This document shows, piece after piece, positions 3,469 to 40,130 of a stretch of 44,881 bases of DNA. Source of the DNA: Escherichia phage SM_A2; sequence record PP920552.1; one strand, written 5' to 3'. Within the stretch, counting starts at the first letter, position 1. The number at the start of each line of letters is the position of its first letter. The notes below the pieces were generated by a model that made no database searches, was not told the origin of the DNA, and was given only the letters and a program-made list of their open reading frames with translations. The position numbers and the translations under genes were made by a program.

Positions 3469-4555
3469 TCAACATCTGGCGGATCGCATGATCCGCCGTC
3501 ACATTTTCACCCAGCGCCTGAGCAATGACCAGGCGCGAAGGGTGCTGGCTATGTGGGAGAAGTTCCGACCCACGCTACTGGGGAAGCTGACCGAGTTACT
3601 TGATGGCAAAAAGGCCATGAATAACAAGGCGCTTACCACACTGTTGACGCAACTCGATAAGACCGTTAAGACGGAACTGCGCACCGAGTTTAAGGCGCTG
3701 GCGGAAAGCCTTCAGGAGTTTGCCGACTCGGAGGCCGATTATCTTGTCGATACACTAACGGCAGCGATCCAGCCCGCGGTCGCCGTGCCTGCGGTCGAGG
3801 TAGTGGGCGTTGTGACCGGTGCGCAGATTGCAGCGACGGCTATGAAAAACCCGTTCCAGGGCAATACGATGATGCAATGGCCTGACTCACTCTCTGAGTG
3901 GACCAGGACGCAGATCGGCAATCAGGTGCGCGCGGGCTTCATCCAGGGCAAGCCGACTATGGAAATAATTGCGGACGTAAGGCGCGCGCTCGGCGGTCGT
4001 AGTGCGCAGGCCATCTCAAGCGTGGTTAAGTCCGCAGTCAACCACTATGCGGCGACCGCCCGCGAATTAATGGTGAAAGCAAATGACGATATTCTCGAAG
4101 GTCGCCAATGGTTGGCTACATTGGACACTCATACCTCCCCTATGTGCCAGCTACGCGATCGCCTGTTTTATCCTGTTGACGTCACTCCCGACACCAAAGG
4201 GAAGCGCGGCGGAAAAGTGGTGGCTGGATCGCAGTATGGCGCTGGCCCGGGCAAGCTGCATTATTGCTGCCGTTCGACTGAGACGTGGAAAGTCAAAGGT
4301 ATGGAAGATTGGCCCAGTGGTAAGCGTCCGGCACTGAAGGCTGACGCGGGTCGATTGCTGAGTGAGCAAGTCGACGCGCAGACTGATTTCTTCTCATGGG
4401 TGCAGCGCCAGCCGCGCCATATTCTGGAGGAATTATACGGGGTGCAGCGCGCGGACCAGATTATGCGCGGCGTGAAAGTGCCGAAGATGTTCACCGACAC
4501 AGGCGAACTAATGACTATTGCACAGCTTAAAAACCGGGGGTTATGGCGTGATTAA
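3452..4555 (+). CDS. head morphogenesis protein (Mu F / SPP1 gp7-like, putative)
   Basis: 367 aa ORF overlapping the portal 3' end by 17 nt; conserved position between portal and scaffold. Confidence 0.6.
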   Translation: MARTINQHLADRMIRRHIFTQRLSNDQARRVLAMWEKFRPTLLGKLTELLDGKKAMNNKALTTLLTQLDKTVKTELRTEFKALAESLQEFADSEADYLVDTLTAAIQPAVAVPAVEVVGVVTGAQIAATAMKNPFQGNTMMQWPDSLSEWTRTQIGNQVRAGFIQGKPTMEIIADVRRALGGRSAQAISSVVKSAVNHYAATARELMVKANDDILEGRQWLATLDTHTSPMCQLRDRLFYPVDVTPDTKGKRGGKVVAGSQYGAGPGKLHYCCRSTETWKVKGMEDWPSGKRPALKADAGRLLSEQVDAQTDFFSWVQRQPRHILEELYGVQRADQIMRGVKVPKMFTDTGELMTIAQLKNRGLWRD

Positions 4556-4856
4556 ATACGCAGCGATTGGATTGGTTATCGGCCTGGCGGTTGGCTTCTG
4601 GCTGGGGGACTCCTACCGTGCGGGCGTTGTGGCGAGAGCGGCGCAGGAAGCGCAAGCGAAAGCCCAACGGCAGCAAACTAAGGCTGTCGAGGGGACAGTG
4701 CAGGCCGAACAGGCCCGCGATGTGGAATACCGGACTATCACTAAAGAGGTTGTGAAATATGTTACGCGTCCTGACCGTACTGATTGCAGTTTTGATGATG
4801 AGCGCGTGCGGATCAAGCAACGTGCCATCGACGCCGCTAACCGAGTCGGTTTATAG
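4548..4856 (+). CDS. i-spanin (Rz-like inner-membrane spanin, putative)
   Basis: N-terminal TM helix YAAIGLVIGLAVGFWLG followed by a charged, coiled-coil-like periplasmic region; probable GTG start at 4548 with GGGGG 8 nt upstream (ORF track opens at TTG 4518); contains the embedded start of a lipoprotein gene in another frame. Confidence 0.5.
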   Translation: MIKYAAIGLVIGLAVGFWLGDSYRAGVVARAAQEAQAKAQRQQTKAVEGTVQAEQARDVEYRTITKEVVKYVTRPDRTDCSFDDERVRIKQRAIDAANRVGL

Positions 4857-4989
4857 ACCGCCTTGCACTTTTGAGAATGCCTCGGCAGATCCAGACGAAG
4901 ACTTGCTGGTTGATGTTAAAAATATGGAATGCGGGGCTAAGCTAAGGGCGCAAGTGCTGGAGTTGCAGAAAATAATTAGGGGGCCGTAA
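4759..4989 (+). CDS. o-spanin (Rz1-like outer-membrane lipoprotein, putative)
   Basis: ATG at 4759 with RBS AAGAGG; signal peptide MLRVLTVLIAVLMMSAC with lipobox-like Cys; short Pro/Cys-containing mature part; starts inside the i-spanin ORF in a different frame (overlapped Rz/Rz1 architecture). Confidence 0.55.
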   Translation: MLRVLTVLIAVLMMSACGSSNVPSTPLTESVYRPPCTFENASADPDEDLLVDVKNMECGAKLRAQVLELQKIIRGP

Positions 4990-5005
4990 TGGCCCCTTTT
5001 TTTTT
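4979..5005. terminator. bidirectional intrinsic terminator
   Basis: GGGGCC-GTAAT-GGCCCC hairpin followed by T9; lies between the convergent plus-strand spanin genes and minus-strand gene 5007-5771. Confidence 0.8.
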
Positions 5006-5006
5006 G

Positions 5007-5771
5007 TTAGCGCGGAATACCGCAGATTTCGTTTAACGTCTTCACGTCCAGCGCCACCGCCGTGGACTTCGGCTTGTCCTGGTATGGAATAAACTGTTCA
5101 ACTTCAGGCCACGCCTTGATCAGCTTCTTATCGGTATTGTGCATATCCAGCACGCCGGTAACAGTTAGTTTGAACGCATCATACTTAGCACGCAACTCGC
5201 GGCGGGCTTTGTCGTTACGGTCCAGGCGCTTACAGAAATCATGGTCTGCCGGGCAGTCTATACGACCGCGTGGCTTATATATCGGCAGCGCTTTCCCGTC
5301 GTCGTCGACTTCGCACACTGACGCTAACAAAATTTCCTCATACCCAGGCACAATATCGCCGAGGTCTGGAGACAGCTTATTCATGTATTTATACTCCCAG
5401 TATCCGCGATGTACTCGGAATCGGTACCCGTCTCCGCTCAATGACACGGTACGGACGTTTCCGCCTGCGTTGATTTCGAAAGTGGCGTCATAAACGCTGC
5501 CAATACCTTTTGGGCGGTCGGAGTCGAAACGATATGTAGCCTTATTGGTGTATACGCAAACGCCGTACATCTGCGACGGGTCATCGCCGATTGCTTCAAT
5601 GCGCGCACGTAGCTCGGCGAACGTATGAATGCCTACAGGCATACAGCGCAACGCAATGTCATACGCCAGGTCGCGAGAGTCCATCATGATTTTTTTGGCT
5701 TCAGTAGTGATTTCGTGGTCGCGCAGGATGTTAGCCAGAATCTGGTTTTTAATGTCTTTTGTCAGTCTCAT
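5007..5771 (-). CDS. hypothetical protein (accessory gene in head module)
   Basis: 254 aa ORF on the opposite strand to the surrounding structural genes; ATG at 5771 with GAGGA RBS; no motif recognised. Confidence 0.6.
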   Translation of the reverse strand: MRLTKDIKNQILANILRDHEITTEAKKIMMDSRDLAYDIALRCMPVGIHTFAELRARIEAIGDDPSQMYGVCVYTNKATYRFDSDRPKGIGSVYDATFEINAGGNVRTVSLSGDGYRFRVHRGYWEYKYMNKLSPDLGDIVPGYEEILLASVCEVDDDGKALPIYKPRGRIDCPADHDFCKRLDRNDKARRELRAKYDAFKLTVTGVLDMHNTDKKLIKAWPEVEQFIPYQDKPKSTAVALDVKTLNEICGIPR

Positions 5772-5815
5772 TTTCGTGTCCTCGTTGTTGGGGCTTTCGC
5801 CCCGTTTGGCTTGGT

Positions 5816-6130
5816 TTAGTTAAACTTGATGTTGCCACCGGTGGAAGTTAAGCGAGCGCATACGGCTTCAACGGCATCGACGCACATGAAATCGTTAAAG
5901 GCTTCTACCAGGGATTTGATGAAAGATGCCGGAACCAGACCGCAAGCCGGGTTATCGAAGGTTGCGGAATTGATTGCGGCCTTCGCTGCTTCAGTAGCAT
6001 TCATGCTCTGGCACAGATTCAGCGCTTCGGCGTTACGCATAGCATGAAAGGTGAAGGTTTTAGCTACGGTAGCTTTATTGAAACGGGTCATTGCTACGTC
6101 TACTGGAGTTGCTACGGTCATGTTAGTCAT
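5816..6130 (-). CDS. hypothetical protein (accessory gene in head module)
   Basis: 104 aa from the ATG at 6130, which has an AAGGA RBS 7 nt upstream (the ORF track extends to 6181); own promoter upstream; no motif recognised. Confidence 0.5.
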   Translation of the reverse strand: MTNMTVATPVDVAMTRFNKATVAKTFTFHAMRNAEALNLCQSMNATEAAKAAINSATFDNPACGLVPASFIKSLVEAFNDFMCVDAVEAVCARLTSTGGNIKFN

Positions 6131-6165
6131 CTTGTTTTCCTTCATATCTCTGTTGGTGTGCAACC

Positions 6166-6195
6166 AATATATTGCAACCAATACCCATATTGCAA
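6166..6195 (-). promoter_or_regulatory. sigma70-like promoter with ATTGGTTGCA motif (leftward)
   Basis: Read on the minus strand: TTGCAA (-35, fwd 6190-6195), 18-nt spacer containing ATTGGTTGCA, TATATT (-10, fwd 6166-6171); a second TGCAACCAAT copy at 6159-6168; upstream of gene 5816-6130. Confidence 0.5.
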
Positions 6196-6284
6196 GCGAA
6201 TTTTGCGATTATTTTTATCGCTGATAATATTAAGGCGTGAAGTCGAGCGGGTGGCCCGCTCTGCCACAATCCCAGGGGGATAGC

Positions 6285-6986
6285 ATGAAACTTACTAAAG
6301 CAGAATATGACGCGTTGCCGGAAGGTATGAAGGCGCTTTTTGTTGCCGATGGTGACGGGTATAAATCAACGTTCATGACCGCCGAAGAAGTACAGGCGGA
6401 GATCAAGGGTCTGAAAGACAACAACGCGAAGCTGGTGAGCGAGAAGAAAGCAGAAGCCGAACGCCGCGCCGAAGCTGAGCGCCTTGCGAAAGAGAAAGAG
6501 GAAGCCGCCGCGCGCAAAAATGGCGACCTCGAAGCGATCGACAAGTCCTGGAAAGATAAGTTTGCAAAACACGAAGCAGACACATCGGGAAAAATCGAAG
6601 CCTACCGCAAGCAGATCCACGATCTAACCATCGGCAGCGCTGCCAAAGACCTGGCGTCGAAGCTGTTCGGTAAGAATGCGGGCATCATGCAACGCCACGT
6701 AATGGACCGCCTGACGCTGGAAGACGGCGAAGACGGCAGCTTGAAAGTGCGTGTCTTGCAGGATGGCAAACCGTCCGCGCTGACTATGGAAGAGCTTGAA
6801 AAAGAGTTCCGTAATAACGCCGATTTTGCATCCGTCCTGGCTGGCACGCCAGCCGGTGGTGCGCCGAGCAAACCGACGCATGTTGTCGAAGATGTGAAGT
6901 CGAAAATCTCTATGGGCCACAGCTTCGGCATCACCGATCTGACGAAACAGGCTGGTGAAATCATCGCTAAAATGGGCGACGAGTAA
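6285..6986 (+). CDS. scaffolding protein (putative)
   Basis: ATG at 6285 with GGGGGA RBS; highly charged, coiled-coil-like sequence (KKAEAERRAEAERLAKEKEEAAARK); immediately upstream of the major capsid gene. Confidence 0.65.
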   Translation: MKLTKAEYDALPEGMKALFVADGDGYKSTFMTAEEVQAEIKGLKDNNAKLVSEKKAEAERRAEAERLAKEKEEAAARKNGDLEAIDKSWKDKFAKHEADTSGKIEAYRKQIHDLTIGSAAKDLASKLFGKNAGIMQRHVMDRLTLEDGEDGSLKVRVLQDGKPSALTMEELEKEFRNNADFASVLAGTPAGGAPSKPTHVVEDVKSKISMGHSFGITDLTKQAGEIIAKMGDE

Positions 6987-22433: not shown

Positions 22434-22451
22434 AAGCCCCGAAAGGGGCTT
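22434..22451. terminator. hairpin between convergent genes (weak bidirectional terminator)
   Basis: AAGCCCC-GAAA-GGGGCTT perfect hairpin; the T-tract is weak on both sides. Confidence 0.5.
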
Positions 22452-22668
22452 ATTTGCAGGTTGTGCTTTTGAAGTGGTCGACCGACACATACTGGAAGTT
22501 GAACGGATACCCCGCCTTGAGCATTTTGTGCCCGCTAAAGTCGGTGACACCGAACACCGGTACAGAATACTCCATACCACTATTCACATATGTTGCGTCG
22601 CAGATTTTTGATGGCATGTCGGCGCAGCCGGTCAAAAGAACAGCACAAATCATAATTAAGGTTTTCAT
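22450..22668 (-). CDS. small lipoprotein (Cor/Llp-like superinfection exclusion candidate)
   Basis: ATG at 22668 with AGGAGAT RBS; signal peptide MKTLIMICAVLLTGC with classical lipobox LLTG-C; about 57-aa mature part; minus-strand with own promoter, between J-like and tail fibre genes. Confidence 0.6.
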   Translation of the reverse strand: MKTLIMICAVLLTGCADMPSKICDATYVNSGMEYSVPVFGVTDFSGHKMLKAGYPFNFQYVSVDHFKSTTCK

Positions 22669-25587: not shown

Positions 25588-25617
25588 ACTATAGTGCAAC
25601 CAACCTATTGGTTGCAA
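25588..25617 (-). promoter_or_regulatory. sigma70-like promoter with palindromic TGCAACCAA-N4-TTGGTTGCA motif (leftward)
   Basis: Minus-strand reading: TTGCAA (-35, fwd 25612-25617), 18-nt spacer, TATAGT (-10, fwd 25588-25593); overlaps the stop of gene 25605-26075; followed by hairpin GGGGGC-AATACA-GCCCCC (25561-25578). Confidence 0.5.
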
Positions 25618-26276: not shown

Positions 26277-26762
26277 TCAACGATTAAGATATTCACGTAG
26301 CTCACTCTCGCTCATTATTTCAATTTGTGCGCCGCCGGTGGGCGGCGCTTCGTCAAAGATTATCAATTGCTGGCACTTGTTATTGCTCGGCCCGACTTCA
26401 CCGGTGACTGCATGTATGAATCGGACCCGCCAGTCCAGAAGAATTATCAGGTTTGCAGTCTTCCTGGCCAACCGCGCCCACTTTGTCGACGTGTCCTGAT
26501 TCAGTAGCATGACGGTCCGACGTCCATGCGCTGCGCACTTGACCCACGGCAGCGGATCGGAATACGGCGGGTTGCACCACTTCCACCCTTTCAACTCTGA
26601 CCAGTCCGCATCGAGCGCGCTGTGCTCTGCCGTGAAGTAACGCGGTAGAAGGTGGTTGTCATCGCTCGCCGCCATGTCATATCGGAATCGGTACTTCCGG
26701 CGCAGCGGTTTAAATAAAGCTGGCGGCGTGCGCCAGCTATCCTTCTGTTCACTCTTCAGCAT
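26277..26762 (-). CDS. DNA N6-adenine methyltransferase (phage Dam-type)
   Basis: Motifs WRTPPALF near the N-terminus, DMAASDDNH, and catalytic NPPY (WCNPPYSD); 161 aa, typical of small phage Dam-family enzymes. Confidence 0.8.
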   Translation of the reverse strand: MLKSEQKDSWRTPPALFKPLRRKYRFRYDMAASDDNHLLPRYFTAEHSALDADWSELKGWKWCNPPYSDPLPWVKCAAHGRRTVMLLNQDTSTKWARLARKTANLIILLDWRVRFIHAVTGEVGPSNNKCQQLIIFDEAPPTGGAQIEIMSESELREYLNR

Positions 26763-27207
26763 GGCCTGGGTCTATCGCGTATAAAGGGACTTTATTGCCG
26801 GTTTTCATAATGCGCTGGACGCGCTTTGACTCCTCGGCGCTAAGCGGTCGGCAATCGGAGTGGTAGCTACCGTTTGCGCGCCACGCCATAAGCACCAGGT
26901 CTTTCCGGTCGATCTTAGACTGGCGACCTTTGGGGCGCACGTACTCCTCGGCACGTTTGCAATGCTCACGCAAACCATCGGCAGTGATGCGGTTTAGTGC
27001 AACGCTGGTTGTGTATCCGGTGCGCTGCATAATCCCCATCAATTCGAAAAGCAGTTCTAAGCGCTCCTCTAACTCCTTGCGCATCTTTTCCTCGCCTTCA
27101 TAGCTCGCCAGGTAGGTATCCGCCAACGCGTTCGCACGTTCGGCCTGTTCGCGGGCTTCGAGGCATTGCGCGGCCCAGTAATTTTTCTCTTCTTGTAAAA
27201 TTTTCAT
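26749..27207 (-). CDS. hypothetical protein
   Basis: 152 aa; ATG 27207 with GGAGA RBS; charged coiled-coil-like N-terminus; no motif recognised. Confidence 0.5.
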   Translation of the reverse strand: MKILQEEKNYWAAQCLEAREQAERANALADTYLASYEGEEKMRKELEERLELLFELMGIMQRTGYTTSVALNRITADGLREHCKRAEEYVRPKGRQSKIDRKDLVLMAWRANGSYHSDCRPLSAEESKRVQRIMKTGNKVPLYAIDPGHAEE

Positions 27208-27254
27208 CGTGTTGTCTCCAGGTATTAAAAAGGGCGTCCAAACCGGACACCCTC

Positions 27255-27288
27255 AATATAATGCAACCAATATGATTATGCAACCAAT
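27255..27288 (-). promoter_or_regulatory. sigma70-like promoter with tandem ATTGGTTGCA motifs (leftward)
   Basis: Minus-strand reading: ATTGGTTGCAT (-35 = TTGCAT, fwd 27278-27283), 17-nt spacer containing a second ATTGGTTGCA, TATATT (-10, fwd 27255-27260); a near-complementary hairpin plus T-run follows in the leader (fwd 27228-27250). Confidence 0.55.
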
Positions 27289-27612
27289 TCACGCATAAAA
27301 ATTTGGGTCGCGCGCTACGTCTACCAGGTAAAGGTTGCTTATGCGGTTGCCGTAGTGCCCTGGGGTGCGCTGGCGGCATACAACGGCGAAGCCTGGGGGG
27401 ATTGTATTGCCTGTCGCAATAATCCACGCCACGCGTGCGCCAGATAGCGTCTTGCCATTATATTCGATACGTGTGCCCCCATCGGCGGTATTGATGTTAC
27501 CAATTTTGCAGCCGGTGGACTTCAGACGAATGACGCCGGTTTTGCTGTCGTAGGAGAATAACTGGTTAGTCATTGCAACCGAAAAATCAATGGCTTCGAA
27601 TGTAGTATTCAT
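27289..27612 (-). CDS. degenerate HNH-like domain protein
   Basis: Segment IEYNGKTLSGARVAWIIATGNTIPPGFAVVCRQRTPGHYGNRISNLYLV resembles phage HNH-type layout, but the expected catalytic His positions are Ala/Arg; ATGA-coupled to the upstream MTase-like gene. Confidence 0.45.
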   Translation of the reverse strand: MNTTFEAIDFSVAMTNQLFSYDSKTGVIRLKSTGCKIGNINTADGGTRIEYNGKTLSGARVAWIIATGNTIPPGFAVVCRQRTPGHYGNRISNLYLVDVARDPNFYA

Positions 27613-28319
27613 TTTAAATTTTCCTCATTGACTGCTATCGCGAAGCCGCGCGGGGTGAGCGACCGGATTAATTTTGTGCGGGCGGACTTGCCTCCGAGGC
27701 GACTATACTGCTTCGAGTACCCTTTTTCAACGAATACAGGCTTTTTCTCAGGCATACGAAAGCCGTTGCCGGTCCATAAGCAGGTCAGCTTCGGATATGA
27801 ATCGCGGGCGTTGATGTATTCCGGGAAGAGCGGGTGCGCGTCATCCTCCGGCAGATAGCCGCCATACTCCCACGGATCAAACGAGTGGTCTGGCTTGCGC
27901 CACTGGGTGGAAAGCACACTGCGCGGATTCTCAATCATATACGGAACCTCAAAGAAGTCCCCCAGAAAAGCGGCGATCTTCGCGGTGCGCACTGCCTTAA
28001 GCTGAAAGGCGGGGTCTTTTGCACGCTTGCGCGGGAAAGCAGGCGCGCCGCTCACTGCCAGATCCGTGCACGGTGGAAACGCATAGATGATATCTGGCGT
28101 ACCGAAATCGCCATTCATCGCACGGTCTACAAAGTCCAGATCGATAAACTCATTGCGATACCGGATTCCGCGACCATAAATCCGGTAGTCCAGATAAGAC
28201 CCATGATCGGCTTCGGAGTAGTTGAAACAGTAGCATTTGTGCCCCATTTCGGCAGCACGCTCGATCATCAAGCCGCTGCCGTCAAACAACGACCAGATAG
28301 TCATTTTTGCAATAGTCAT
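27609..28319 (-). CDS. compact C5-cytosine methyltransferase-like protein
   Basis: Motif I LFDGSG (FxGxG), motif IV FPPC (Pro-Cys), motif VI ENP (ENV-like); only 236 aa, so no obvious room for a full target-recognition domain; ATGA-coupled to the helicase stop. Confidence 0.55.
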   Translation of the reverse strand: MTIAKMTIWSLFDGSGLMIERAAEMGHKCYCFNYSEADHGSYLDYRIYGRGIRYRNEFIDLDFVDRAMNGDFGTPDIIYAFPPCTDLAVSGAPAFPRKRAKDPAFQLKAVRTAKIAAFLGDFFEVPYMIENPRSVLSTQWRKPDHSFDPWEYGGYLPEDDAHPLFPEYINARDSYPKLTCLWTGNGFRMPEKKPVFVEKGYSKQYSRLGGKSARTKLIRSLTPRGFAIAVNEENLK

Positions 28320-29740
28320 TTGCGCGCCTTTTTAGCTTTCATGTATTCCATCAAGTCGTCCTGAATATCTCGCTTACTGTCGCGACGCTCGGCGACCAAT
28401 TCGTCCAGTGTCCCGCGCGCCTGGATAATGTAGACGAATACCGGACGTGGGTGTCCGGCTTGCATCTGGCGAACCGGCCCGATACGTTCAACAATCTGCG
28501 AAAAGTGCTCAAAGTTCCAGGTATCAGAGAAGATTGCCAGGTGATGCCCGCCGTCCTGCAAGTTAAGGCCGTGGCCTGCCGATGCCGGGTGTGCAAACAT
28601 GATGGGGATCTCGCCCCTGTTCCACGCTTCCATATCCTTATTGCCCTGCTTACCTTTACCCAACGCGACGCCGTGTGGAAATTTCTTCTTAAGACGTGCC
28701 AGGTCATGCTTATACTGATACGCAACGAGCAACGGCGCACCGTTCAATTCCTCCACGATACTTTCCAGTGCGTCCAGCTTCGCGTCGTGAATCTTCACCC
28801 ACTCGTCGGTCCGTTCGCCGTCTTCGTCCACCTTATACACAGCGCCGGAAGCAAGCTGAAGGCACTTAATTGTCTTCGATGCCGCGTTCGCCGCTTCCAC
28901 TGTTCCGCTTTCCAGTTCGGCAAATAGCTCGCTTTCAAACTGGTCGTAAATCTTGCGGGCTTTCTTCGGCAGGTCCACAACAACCGGCGTATAGATTGGC
29001 TTGTCGCACCCGAAGTATTCAGCCGCGTCAACGGTGAGGGATACATCTGACAGACGTTGTTGTATCTCTTTCTCGGAGTTCTTTAGCGGAGCGTGCTGCA
29101 TAGTGAAGCTGCCCGGCTTAACAGGCTTGCTAATGAACCAGCGGTCGGTAAATGCCTTATAGCTACTGCCGAGGCGTTCGCCACCGTCGACAAACCACGT
29201 CTGACCCCATAAGTCTTTCAGCCCGTTGGGTGCGGGTGTGCCGGTAAGGTTAATCCAGCGCTTGACGTGTTTATGTGCAATCGCTGCCAGTGCGCGGGCG
29301 CGCTTGCTCCCCTGCTTGCTACGATAGCCTTTCAGCTTAGTCGATTCATCGGCAACAACGACCGTAAAGGGCCACGCATCGCCGTAATAGTCGACCAGCC
29401 ACTCAACCACATCGTAGTTAACACAAACCACGTTAGCGTCGCTCTCAAGCGCGGCAATACGGTCCTTCTCCGGTCCGGTGCCGTCTACGACCAGCAGGGA
29501 TGAGAACCGCCATTTCTCCTGTTCCGGGGGCCATGTGCCGGAGGCAACGCGTAGCGGGGCCAGCACCAGTACGCGGTCCTCATGATGGGACAGGACGCCA
29601 GTCTGGAACATTTTATTCAGCGCCCACATTGTCGCGCCGGTTTTACCGGATCCCATTGTCGCCCATATATTACATCGCTTATGCTTGAGGATGAACGCGG
29701 TTATCAACTTCTGATATTCGCGGCGTCGGAATCGTGCCAT
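28316..29740 (-). CDS. SNF2/DEAD-like superfamily-2 helicase
   Basis: Walker A GSGKTG, DExx-like VVADEST, C-terminal helicase region; probable start at MARFRRREYQ (29740) rather than the track start 29830. Confidence 0.85.
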   Translation of the reverse strand: MARFRRREYQKLITAFILKHKRCNIWATMGSGKTGATMWALNKMFQTGVLSHHEDRVLVLAPLRVASGTWPPEQEKWRFSSLLVVDGTGPEKDRIAALESDANVVCVNYDVVEWLVDYYGDAWPFTVVVADESTKLKGYRSKQGSKRARALAAIAHKHVKRWINLTGTPAPNGLKDLWGQTWFVDGGERLGSSYKAFTDRWFISKPVKPGSFTMQHAPLKNSEKEIQQRLSDVSLTVDAAEYFGCDKPIYTPVVVDLPKKARKIYDQFESELFAELESGTVEAANAASKTIKCLQLASGAVYKVDEDGERTDEWVKIHDAKLDALESIVEELNGAPLLVAYQYKHDLARLKKKFPHGVALGKGKQGNKDMEAWNRGEIPIMFAHPASAGHGLNLQDGGHHLAIFSDTWNFEHFSQIVERIGPVRQMQAGHPRPVFVYIIQARGTLDELVAERRDSKRDIQDDLMEYMKAKKARK

Positions 29741-29744
29741 TTCT

Positions 29745-29963
29745 TTATTCCGCCTTTTTCCAGACTTCGGTTTCACTGTTCCAGTTCCTTTTTGTAGCGT
29801 CGTAGTTGGTGGCGTGTCCGATGTGCACACTGGTAGCCCGGAAGCTCTTGAATTTTTGCCAGCACACCGTCAACGGCAGCGGATCATTCATGCCCGCGAT
29901 AAACCATACGCGATCGCCCGGTTTACATTCGCCCAGCTTGGTGAGTCGGTAATGTTCTTTCAT
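29745..29963 (-). CDS. hypothetical small protein
   Basis: 72 aa from ATG 29963 with GGGAGA RBS; preceded (in transcription direction) by hairpin GGCGGG-ACAAG-CCCGCC. Confidence 0.4.
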   Translation of the reverse strand: MKEHYRLTKLGECKPGDRVWFIAGMNDPLPLTVCWQKFKSFRATSVHIGHATNYDATKRNWNSETEVWKKAE

Positions 29964-30211: not shown

Positions 30212-30250
30212 ACTATACCGCTATGCGACCAATTCAGCAACCAATAAATC
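30212..30250 (-). promoter_or_regulatory. sigma70-like promoter with tandem ATTGGT(T/C)GC motifs (leftward)
   Basis: Minus-strand reading: ATTGGTTGCTG (-35 = TTGCTG, fwd 30235-30240), 17-nt spacer containing ATTGGTCGCA, TATAGT (-10, fwd 30212-30217); lies inside the 3' end of the VRR-NUC gene. Confidence 0.45.
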
Positions 30251-36641: not shown

Positions 36642-36846
36642 GTTTTATATCTCCGATTGGTTAAGTTTAGGTGTCGGCAGTTAACTTCGTCGGTGGCCTT
36701 AACATATTGCCAGGTTGCGCGTTCTCCCGTTCGGGTAGTGGACCGGGTTATATATTCACGGTTGGGAATCCTGACACTTCGATCCGGCCCCTGCGTTGCC
36801 CCTCTCCAGTTTGCGTCCTGCATCCTGTCGACGGGGTGAATAATAG

Positions 36847-37045: not shown

Positions 37046-37375
37046 ATGAATGTAAACGACGCAATCGAAATGTTAACGAAGACTGTTAGCAGTGAAACAA
37101 GCCGGTCATGGGCTTATACCGATGCCGTTGGGGCGGTGCTGTTTGAGGTCGAGCGCCTGCGCAGTGTAGAAAAAGAATTACGCGCCAGGCTGGAATTGCT
37201 CAACGGTACTGCAGCAAGCAAGCTGCAAAAGCACAATGAAGAAATGGAAGAATACAAAAAACAGGTTATCCGTTTGCGCGCCGAGGGCAAATCCTGGGCG
37301 ATGATTGCCGAGTTGACCGGAATTAATCGGAGCACAGTGCGCTCCTGGGTACGCAATAATAAAACTTCTAAGTAA
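37046..37375 (+). CDS. HTH DNA-binding regulator (putative)
   Basis: 109 aa; coiled-coil N-terminal half; C-terminal HTH resembling sigma-70 region 4/LuxR type (GKSWAMIAELTGINRSTVRSWVRNN); first gene of the rightward operon. Confidence 0.55.
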   Translation: MNVNDAIEMLTKTVSSETSRSWAYTDAVGAVLFEVERLRSVEKELRARLELLNGTAASKLQKHNEEMEEYKKQVIRLRAEGKSWAMIAELTGINRSTVRSWVRNNKTSK

Positions 37376-40068: not shown

Positions 40069-40102
40069 ATTGGTTGCATTCACCCTGGCACCCTGCTATT
40101 TT
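40069..40102 (+). promoter_or_regulatory. sigma70-like promoter with two ATTGGTTGCA-type motifs (rightward)
   Basis: ATTGGTTGCAT (-35 = TTGCAT 40074-40079), 17-nt spacer, TATTTT (40097-40102); a second motif TTTGGTTGCAC overlaps the -10/+1 region; about 20 nt upstream of the AAGAGGA RBS of gene 40131. Confidence 0.55.
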
Positions 40103-40130
40103 GGTTGCACACCAACAAGAGGACTGAACG

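Follow-up and report, generated by a model that had tools for sequence, protein, structure and literature searches.

When a phage keeps a small gene that resembles a homing endonuclease and has lost the residues with which such an enzyme cuts DNA, what is the gene for? This question is raised by an open reading frame (ORF) of 107 amino acids (aa) on the minus strand of Escherichia phage SM_A2 (PP920552.1). The stretch of DNA analysed here, hereafter the window, comprises 44,881 nt and is a complete genome-length stretch of a Dhillonvirus, i.e., of an HK578/SO-1-like siphovirus of E. coli. The ORF occupies positions 27289-27612, with its TGA stop codon at 27289-27291, and has the same bounds as a feature that an earlier inspection of the letters and translations (the sequence-only reading) had described as an HNH-like domain with replaced catalytic histidines. 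Its orthologues, e.g., SO-1 gp31, KarlBarth gp35 and SM_S22 CDS0036, are labelled in public records as 'putative HNH endonuclease', 'putative homing endonuclease' or 'hypothetical protein', and our literature searches turned up no functional study of the gene. A paper on Retron-Eco7 (PMC12640716) describes escape mutations in a Dhillonvirus gene that it does not name and whose function it gives as unknown; this gene could conceivably be the 107-aa one.

Our preferred answer, to which we assign a probability of roughly 60%, is that the gene encodes a truncated and catalytically degenerate I-HmuI/HNH_3-type protein, i.e., a pseudo-nuclease that would bind DNA without cutting it and that has been retained with its nuclease chemistry lost.

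Homology to HNH_3 endonucleases

Judged by profile comparisons, the 107-aa product is a small basic protein descended from an I-HmuI/HNH_3-type homing endonuclease. It is matched by PHROG 99 ('HNH endonuclease') with E=2.7e-16. When 1.84 billion representatives were searched exhaustively with HMMER, 24 proteins were recovered at E<=0.001, and the distant members of this set are classic HNH_3(+AP2) phage endonucleases that pass the Pfam threshold. A profile of the degenerate subfamily aligned with a profile of the active relatives over 88 columns, with a probability of 99.4% and E=3.7e-21 (hhalign). The HNH-like layout proposed in the sequence-only reading is therefore borne out, and the strings that it quoted are present: GARVAW corresponds to residues 58-63, VCRQRTPGH to residues 78-86 and GNRISNLYLV to residues 88-97. 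The check that it suggested, alignment to HNH families by profile hidden Markov models, was run; the similarity is clear, and the general-base and Asp positions are occupied by C79 and V78, respectively.

Several searches reached less far. The word-indexed protein search returned only near-identical orthologues, and the exhaustive search was needed to find gp17 of Edwardsiella phage eiAU and the proteins P0007 and P0009. The Pfam HNH_3 profile (PF13392) scores 12.6 bits, which is below its gathering cut-off of 24.8, and the match spans only profile positions 5-21, before the catalytic Asp-His. NCBIfam gave no match to the protein. A search of PDB sequences with a profile built only from Dhillonvirus proteins found nothing, and I-HmuI (PDB 1U3E) was reached only after active relatives had been added; the alignment through this mixed profile sets the correspondence of residues to I-HmuI that is used below. 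The 107-aa protein shares the HNH_3/I-HmuI fold, consisting of an N-terminal beta-sheet and the beta-hairpin of the His-Me finger. As far as these comparisons go, it is homologous to the HNH_3 endonucleases, yet it is not a functional member of the family.

State of the active site

In I-HmuI, H75 is reportedly the general base, and D74 and N96 are said to be metal ligands. At the position of D74-H75, the 107-aa protein has V78-C79 (27376-27381; all features of the gene lie on the minus strand), so that a metal-ligand residue and the general-base residue are gone. Of 18 Dhillonvirus-type orthologues, 17 have Cys as residue 79 and L020, which diverges most, has Leu; in P0009 the residue is Pro, and because of this variation the Cys does not qualify as a conserved substitute. 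Residue 78, which is Val here, is Thr or Arg in relatives. A zinc site on C79 was considered and rejected, since the protein's only two cysteines, C35 and C79, are each variable.

The second metal ligand, N96, lies in an alpha-helix of I-HmuI that is absent from the model of the 107-aa protein. The protein ends 9 residues past its last beta-strand, in a tail (VARDPNFYA, including P103) that is coil in the confident model, and the helix with its Asn ligand is therefore missing. By ungapped alignment only, N96 corresponds to D102, and this residue is out of register in other lineages.

A further difference lies in the helix GARVAWIIAT (residues 58-67; 27412-27441), where H56-R57 of I-HmuI, the 'HR' of HNH_3, corresponds to A59-R60; the His is lost, and the Arg is retained along with W63. 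The sequence-only reading had recognized that a His is replaced by Ala in GARVAW, and this part of its claim is correct, but it took the residue for the first catalytic His, and the position is that of the 'HR' His (H56) and not of the general base. Similarly, it had placed the metal-binding His region in VCRQRTPGH. Catalytic residues are indeed replaced there (V78 and C79), but the His at the end of this string, H86, is not an HNH motif residue. It belongs to a 2-residue insertion (G85-H86) within RQRTPGHYGNR (residues 80-90; 27343-27375), i.e., the former His-Me finger loop. None of these 11 residues varies among the 18 Dhillonvirus-type orthologues; across the four lineages in which the family is found, H86 and R90 never vary, and Y87 is shared by three (it is Ala in P0009).

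The residues that are still present are structural ones, namely R60, W63, N89-R90 and N93-L94, along with the N-terminal beta-sheet. N89 is the retained counterpart of N83 in I-HmuI. N93-L94, the counterpart of N87-L88, contains the structural Asn of the H-N-N motif, the class to which I-HmuI is assigned (PMC2761285), and is invariant across all aligned sequences, whether active or inactive. It opens the final segment of the protein (residues 93-107; 27292-27336), which continues with the last beta-strand (residues 94-98) and the coil tail. The N-terminal antiparallel beta-sheet module (residues 19-57; 27442-27558) has a predicted local distance difference test (pLDDT) score of ~90 or higher in the second model and, over the region that aligns, corresponds to the N-terminal part of I-HmuI; conserved residues in it are Y21, T25, G26, R29, G38, G45, G46, N52 and K54. 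On the evidence of these alignments and models, the protein cannot act as a canonical HNH nuclease.

Selection and fixation at one locus

We estimated the ratio of nonsynonymous to synonymous substitution rates (dN/dS) by the method of Nei and Gojobori (NG86) from 18 distinct orthologous coding sequences extracted from fetched loci. For the 107-aa ORF, dN averages 0.067 and dS 0.72; the ratio of these means is 0.09, and the median pairwise ratio is 0.054. The values for genes of the same region are 0.04 (a Dcm-like methyltransferase, MTase), 0.058 (an SNF2-family helicase), 0.11 (Dam) and 0.16 (the 152-aa gene immediately downstream, related to an anti-Tmn gene). The 107-aa gene is under purifying selection and is fixed, and with a dN/dS of ~0.05-0.09 it is not a decaying relic. 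Its reading frame is intact in all orthologous loci examined except that of Escherichia phage SSL-2009a (L018), where a frameshift after approximately residue 75 yields a protein with a differing C-terminus (P0006) and may reflect either an error in sequencing or a true inactivation.

The 2.2 kb around the ORF are matched in 157 phage records at ~80-95% identity. Using tblastn, we found the 107-aa protein at an identity of at least 80% in 157 phage records, nearly all at full length (162 records in all), the helicase at an identity of at least 90% in 157 and the MTase at an identity of at least 80% in 154, although these counts are not matched one to one. The gene lies at the same locus in every locus inspected, and it persists across lineages at only ~40% identity. 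A mobile homing endonuclease gene would be expected to occur sporadically and at variable loci; the fixation of the 107-aa gene at one locus argues that it is not such a gene. Moreover, Pfam detects no NUMOD, helix-turn-helix (HTH) or AP2 module in the protein.

The sequence-only reading had suggested a domesticated DNA-binding remnant of a homing endonuclease. That the D-H pair and the metal-binding helix have been lost, that the locus is fixed and that dN/dS is low all agree with domestication; DNA binding, the other part of that suggestion, is something that we infer. In practical terms, ~160 phage genome records carry the gene, many of them with the label 'HNH endonuclease' or 'homing endonuclease', and this label should change. 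The gene also offers a small, clean case of a selfish nuclease gene that the virus hosting it took over and retained for a different use.

Genomic context and the methyltransferase

The degenerate subfamily comprises five clusters at E<=1e-10 among the 1.84 billion representatives: P0003 (Dhillonvirus), the frameshifted SSL-2009a copy, P0007, P0008 (gp17 of Edwardsiella phage eiAU) and P0009. In each lineage (Dhillonvirus, eiAU and the contigs L021 and L022), a homologous SNF2-family helicase is encoded upstream of the gene. On the P0007 contig (L021), the gene directly overlaps the helicase stop codon. The order in eiAU is helicase, gp17 and two MTases, and on the P0009 contig (L022) it is helicase, a 60-aa ORF and the P0009 gene, with no MTase nearby. 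In Shigella phage EP23, which is itself a Dhillonvirus, the helicase (4479-5996) is followed at once by the HNH-like gene (5998-6315), again with no MTase. The conserved neighbour of the 107-aa gene is the SNF2 helicase (28316-29830 in the window), not the MTase. The helicase family is far wider, since it occurs in 1,517 phage records, mostly without the 107-aa protein; the protein is therefore a lineage-specific addition to the helicase module and not a universal partner of it.

It might seem most natural to associate the protein with the gene to which it is coupled, and the sequence-only reading had proposed that it is an accessory factor for the MTase-like gene. In SM_A2, this gene encodes a 236-aa Dcm-like MTase (27609-28319, minus strand), and the two ORFs share an ATGA stop/start overlap (27609-27612); together with a GAGGAA ribosome-binding site (27621-27626) located 8 nt upstream of the ATG of the 107-aa ORF, this junction, as read from the sequence, spans 27609-27626. 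The overlap is present in most Dhillonviruses, and the MTase is a short protein without a match in Pfam (its FxGxG and PC-type motifs were seen by eye only), as might be expected if the 107-aa protein provided a DNA-binding or target-recognition subunit. However, the two do not obligately co-occur: EP23, L021 and L022 lack this MTase, and the MTases of eiAU have no BLASTP match to it (E<=1e-5). In addition, the MTase family (PHROG 757) occurs in 1,511 phage records from many genera, compared with 162 for the 107-aa protein, leaving ~1,350 that lack the latter. We therefore abandon the proposal as very unlikely. The MTase gene seems to have been inserted later, separating the helicase from the 107-aa gene.

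Traces of the gene's origin may be visible in other genomes. In Escherichia phage 26 (Kagunavirus; L026 2998-3138), a 46-aa ORF labelled 'HNH endonuclease' overlaps the helicase stop and consists only of an N-terminal HNH_3-type fragment; it appears to be a decayed copy at the same site. Gp17 of eiAU (L003 3360-3815) carries an N-terminal NUMOD-like piece (GVSQVLQGHKKSHRGYVFRR in the P0008 representative, GVTQVLLGRKKSHRGFVFRR in gp17), which is below threshold (E=3e-4) and resembles the NUMOD-like module of I-HmuI. P0009 (L022 3112-3594) has a weak C-terminal HTH-like tail (HTH_23, E=0.04). Because these traces, and also the tandem relatives with a degenerate first copy that are described below, fit such a history, we suggest that a homing endonuclease of the HNH_3 type settled downstream of the helicase, that catalysis and the accessory modules were then lost, and that the gene was kept in some lineages.

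Candidate functions

If the 107-aa protein is a DNA-binding pseudo-nuclease, it would have lost the nuclease chemistry and the C-terminal DNA-binding modules of its ancestor and kept the N-terminal beta-sheet module, the helix that follows it and the beta-hairpin scaffold of the His-Me finger. DNA would then be contacted by the retained beta-sheet, which in I-HmuI is a major-groove reader, and by the newly fixed, Arg-rich RQRTPGHYGNR loop. The role would presumably lie in phage DNA metabolism or gene regulation and not in homing, with the gene fixed at or near the end of an SNF2-helicase operon in Dhillonvirus and three related siphovirus lineages. It is important to emphasize the observations that weigh against this proposal. 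We infer DNA binding, and gene context alone does not name a biological role. The family is tiny, so that the comparative evidence comes from four lineages. Finally, the enlarged loop of the former active site contains the invariant H86, next to which three of the four lineages have Y87, and the ungapped alignment places D102 opposite N96 of I-HmuI, which leaves room for a non-canonical active site.

Such a site would make the protein a nuclease or nickase in which H86 and/or Y87 replaces the general base and D98, D102 or N104 holds the metal. The invariance of H86 and of the surrounding 11 residues is in keeping with this idea, as is the existence of His-Me finger nucleases that lack the His (PMC5714182). 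However, the acidic or amide residue is out of register across lineages, the candidate Tyr is Ala in P0009, the Asp beside the general base is replaced by a hydrophobic residue and the Pfam HNH_3 threshold is not reached. Because the helix and the metal ligands are missing, a working nuclease is improbable, and we regard a rebuilt active site as a rather unlikely explanation. Somewhat less unlikely, but still doubtful, is that the protein acts through contacts with other proteins, either as a cofactor of the SNF2 helicase or as a decoy by which an HNH-type defence nuclease of the host is blocked. The gene is always downstream of the helicase, to which it is directly coupled in L021 and EP23, and pseudo-nuclease modules occur attached to superfamily 2 (SF2) motors, e.g., FANCM. 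It also sits in a stretch rich in anti-defence genes, with the Dcm-like MTase, the anti-Tmn relative and Dam as neighbours and a Lar-like protein in SM_S22. Against this, most records with the helicase lack the 107-aa protein, adjacent genes in phage operons are coupled by default, and dN/dS is low and uniform, unlike that of the faster-evolving anti-Tmn gene. That the gene is nothing but a functionless, decaying remnant we consider extremely unlikely. Its catalytic residues and C-terminal modules are gone, a truly decayed fragment occupies the same post-helicase position in phage 26, and one orthologue is frameshifted; however, a dN/dS of 0.05-0.09 at a dS of ~0.7, a frame intact in all other loci examined, tblastn matches in ~157 records, nearly all at full length, an invariant stretch of 11 residues and persistence at ~40% identity between lineages are not what decay would produce. 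The role of the DNA-binding pseudo-nuclease that we favour might be probed using natural variation, e.g., EP23 without the MTase, SM_A8 without the anti-Tmn gene and the four lineages.

Comparison with known systems

The closest well-described reference is I-HmuI together with HNH_3, which belong to group 2 of the His-Me finger classification of Jablonska et al. 2017 (PMC5714182). In comparison, the 107-aa protein lacks the equivalents of D74-H75, H56 and the N96 helix, has no C-terminal helical, HTH or AP2 module, scores under the Pfam cut-off, contains two inserted residues, one of them an invariant His, and is not mobile.

Degenerate HNH_3 modules also occur in tandem HNH_3(-AP2) proteins. 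In five of five such relatives (P0013, P0014, P0015, P0018 and P0020), the N-terminal copy lacks the DH pair, and in four of the five (all except P0014) it has lost the first His as well, e.g., 'LARIAW...VSFRNGN...NL' in P0015 and 'AARVAY...VQVVDGN' in P0020. These five proteins indicate that dead copies of the module have repeatedly been kept, and they look like a recurrent architecture that joins a pseudo-nuclease to a nuclease. They differ from the 107-aa protein in that the dead copy is fused to an intact second copy and lacks the GHY insertion, whereas the 107-aa protein is free-standing and has the insertion. We looked in the window for a second HNH_3-type ORF that might serve as an active partner and found none.

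Outside phages, Smad MH1 is an inactive His-Me finger for which DNA binding is documented (PMC5714182). As in the 107-aa protein, the catalytic His was lost and the protein was kept, and DNA binding by the phage protein would extend the parallel. However, Smad MH1 is a eukaryotic domain from another, unrelated branch of the superfamily, and its loop is stabilised by zinc. Homing endonucleases can also take on roles other than cleavage, as in autorepression by I-TevI and in the LAGLIDADG maturases. These proteins resemble our proposal in using a homing-endonuclease scaffold to bind and not to cut, but they are from different nuclease families and are active, or were until recently, in mobile contexts. 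PacI reportedly retains the helix in its beta-beta-alpha-metal fold, its metal ligands and zinc sites. The 107-aa protein differs from it in that the helix is wholly missing. The similarity between the two is that both lack the general-base His and that a candidate residue is available in the loop: PacI is a His-less His-Me finger nuclease that uses a loop Tyr (PMC5714182), and H86 or Y87 lies in the enlarged loop of the 107-aa protein.

A repeat motif downstream of the gene

The region 3' of the stop codon (27227-27287, minus strand) contains two copies of TTGGTTGCAT (27278-27287 and 27261-27270), followed by TATATT (27255-27260) and by a GC-rich hairpin with a 10-bp stem, as determined by folding, and a U-run (together 27227-27254). 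The hairpin resembles a terminator placed shortly downstream of promoter-like sequence, and the consensus terminator scan does not list it after the 107-aa gene. The stretch seems to mark where the operon ends and the next promoter lies, and a like arrangement follows the gene in Dhillonvirus, L020, L017, L021 and L022. The same layout of paired TTGGTTGCAT, TATATT and hairpin is found in L020, L017 and L021. A tandem pair of the motif within ~20 nt past the gene's stop is shared by Dhillonvirus, L020, L017, L021 and L022, i.e., by three of the four lineages, and in eiAU a single copy follows Dam, where the same operon ends.

The lineages that have the protein are also those in which the 8-mer TGGTTGCA is strongly over-represented. 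It occurs 11 times in the window, compared with 1.7 expected, and none of 100 shuffles reaches 11. It is present 16 times in eiAU (1.3 expected), twice in the 1-kb L021 and three times in L022, and once (1.35 expected) in the Kagunavirus phage 26, which has the homologous helicase and the decayed HNH fragment. In the window, (T)TGGTTGCA sites are located at 6159-6180, 22723, 25595-25616, 27262-27286, 36849, 40071-40109 and 40633, and copies of TTGGTTGCAT with one mismatch at 30223, 39977 and 40787. The TGGTTGCA sites are mostly intergenic, are often paired and overlap sigma-70-like promoters of the form TTGCA(T/A)-N17/18-TATAxT; some copies form inverted repeats, as in TTGCAACCAA-N4-TTGGTTGCA at 25595-25616. 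A collection-wide scan for paired TGGTTGCA gave, among the matches listed, scattered single occurrences that resemble chance. (T)TGGTTGCA is probably a promoter or operator element.

One might then speculate that the 107-aa protein is a domesticated, sequence-specific regulator that recognises (T)TGGTTGCA repeats at promoters and operon ends. We think this unlikely; the co-occurrence of motif and gene is suggestive but may only mark the end of an operon and a shared type of promoter. If it were true, the protein would be a phage counterpart of the Smad MH1 or AP2 story, that of a nuclease scaffold turned into a factor for transcription or replication; and with the TTGGTTGCA promoter repeats as its target, a regulator would have been identified for a phage genus much used in defence screens (BASEL collection) and phage engineering.

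Two genes elsewhere in the window lie near copies of the motif. A 109-aa protein (37046-37375, plus strand; PHROG 9366), whose gene closely follows a TGGTTGCA site and precedes that of the primase-helicase, has a weak match to an HTH DNA-binding PHROG (E=8e-5) and is an alternative candidate for binding the motif. A Cor-like superinfection-exclusion gene (22450-22662, minus strand; PHROG 1119, E=2e-25), located among tail genes on the opposite strand, has its own promoter-like element, TTGGTTGCAT-N17-AATACT.

Other observations in the window

A segment of 52 nt (36756-36807) matches, at 92-94% identity, unannotated DNA of phages whose genomes measure ~51 kb (slyngel, swan01, XY3 and others, which we take to be T1-like Drexlerviridae), and these phages share nothing else with the 25-kb query. 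An Rfam scan of the window, including this segment, gave no match.

The next gene downstream of the 107-aa ORF (26749-27207, minus strand) encodes the 152-aa protein mentioned above and carries the PHROG 10530 label 'DNA ligase'. The protein is 82% identical to SM_S22 CDS0035 (ORF35), and the gene is not found in SM_A8 and HK578. SM_S22 CDS0035 has been shown experimentally to be an anti-Tmn anti-defence protein (PMC11846954), and the 'ligase' label, judged by this similarity, looks wrong.
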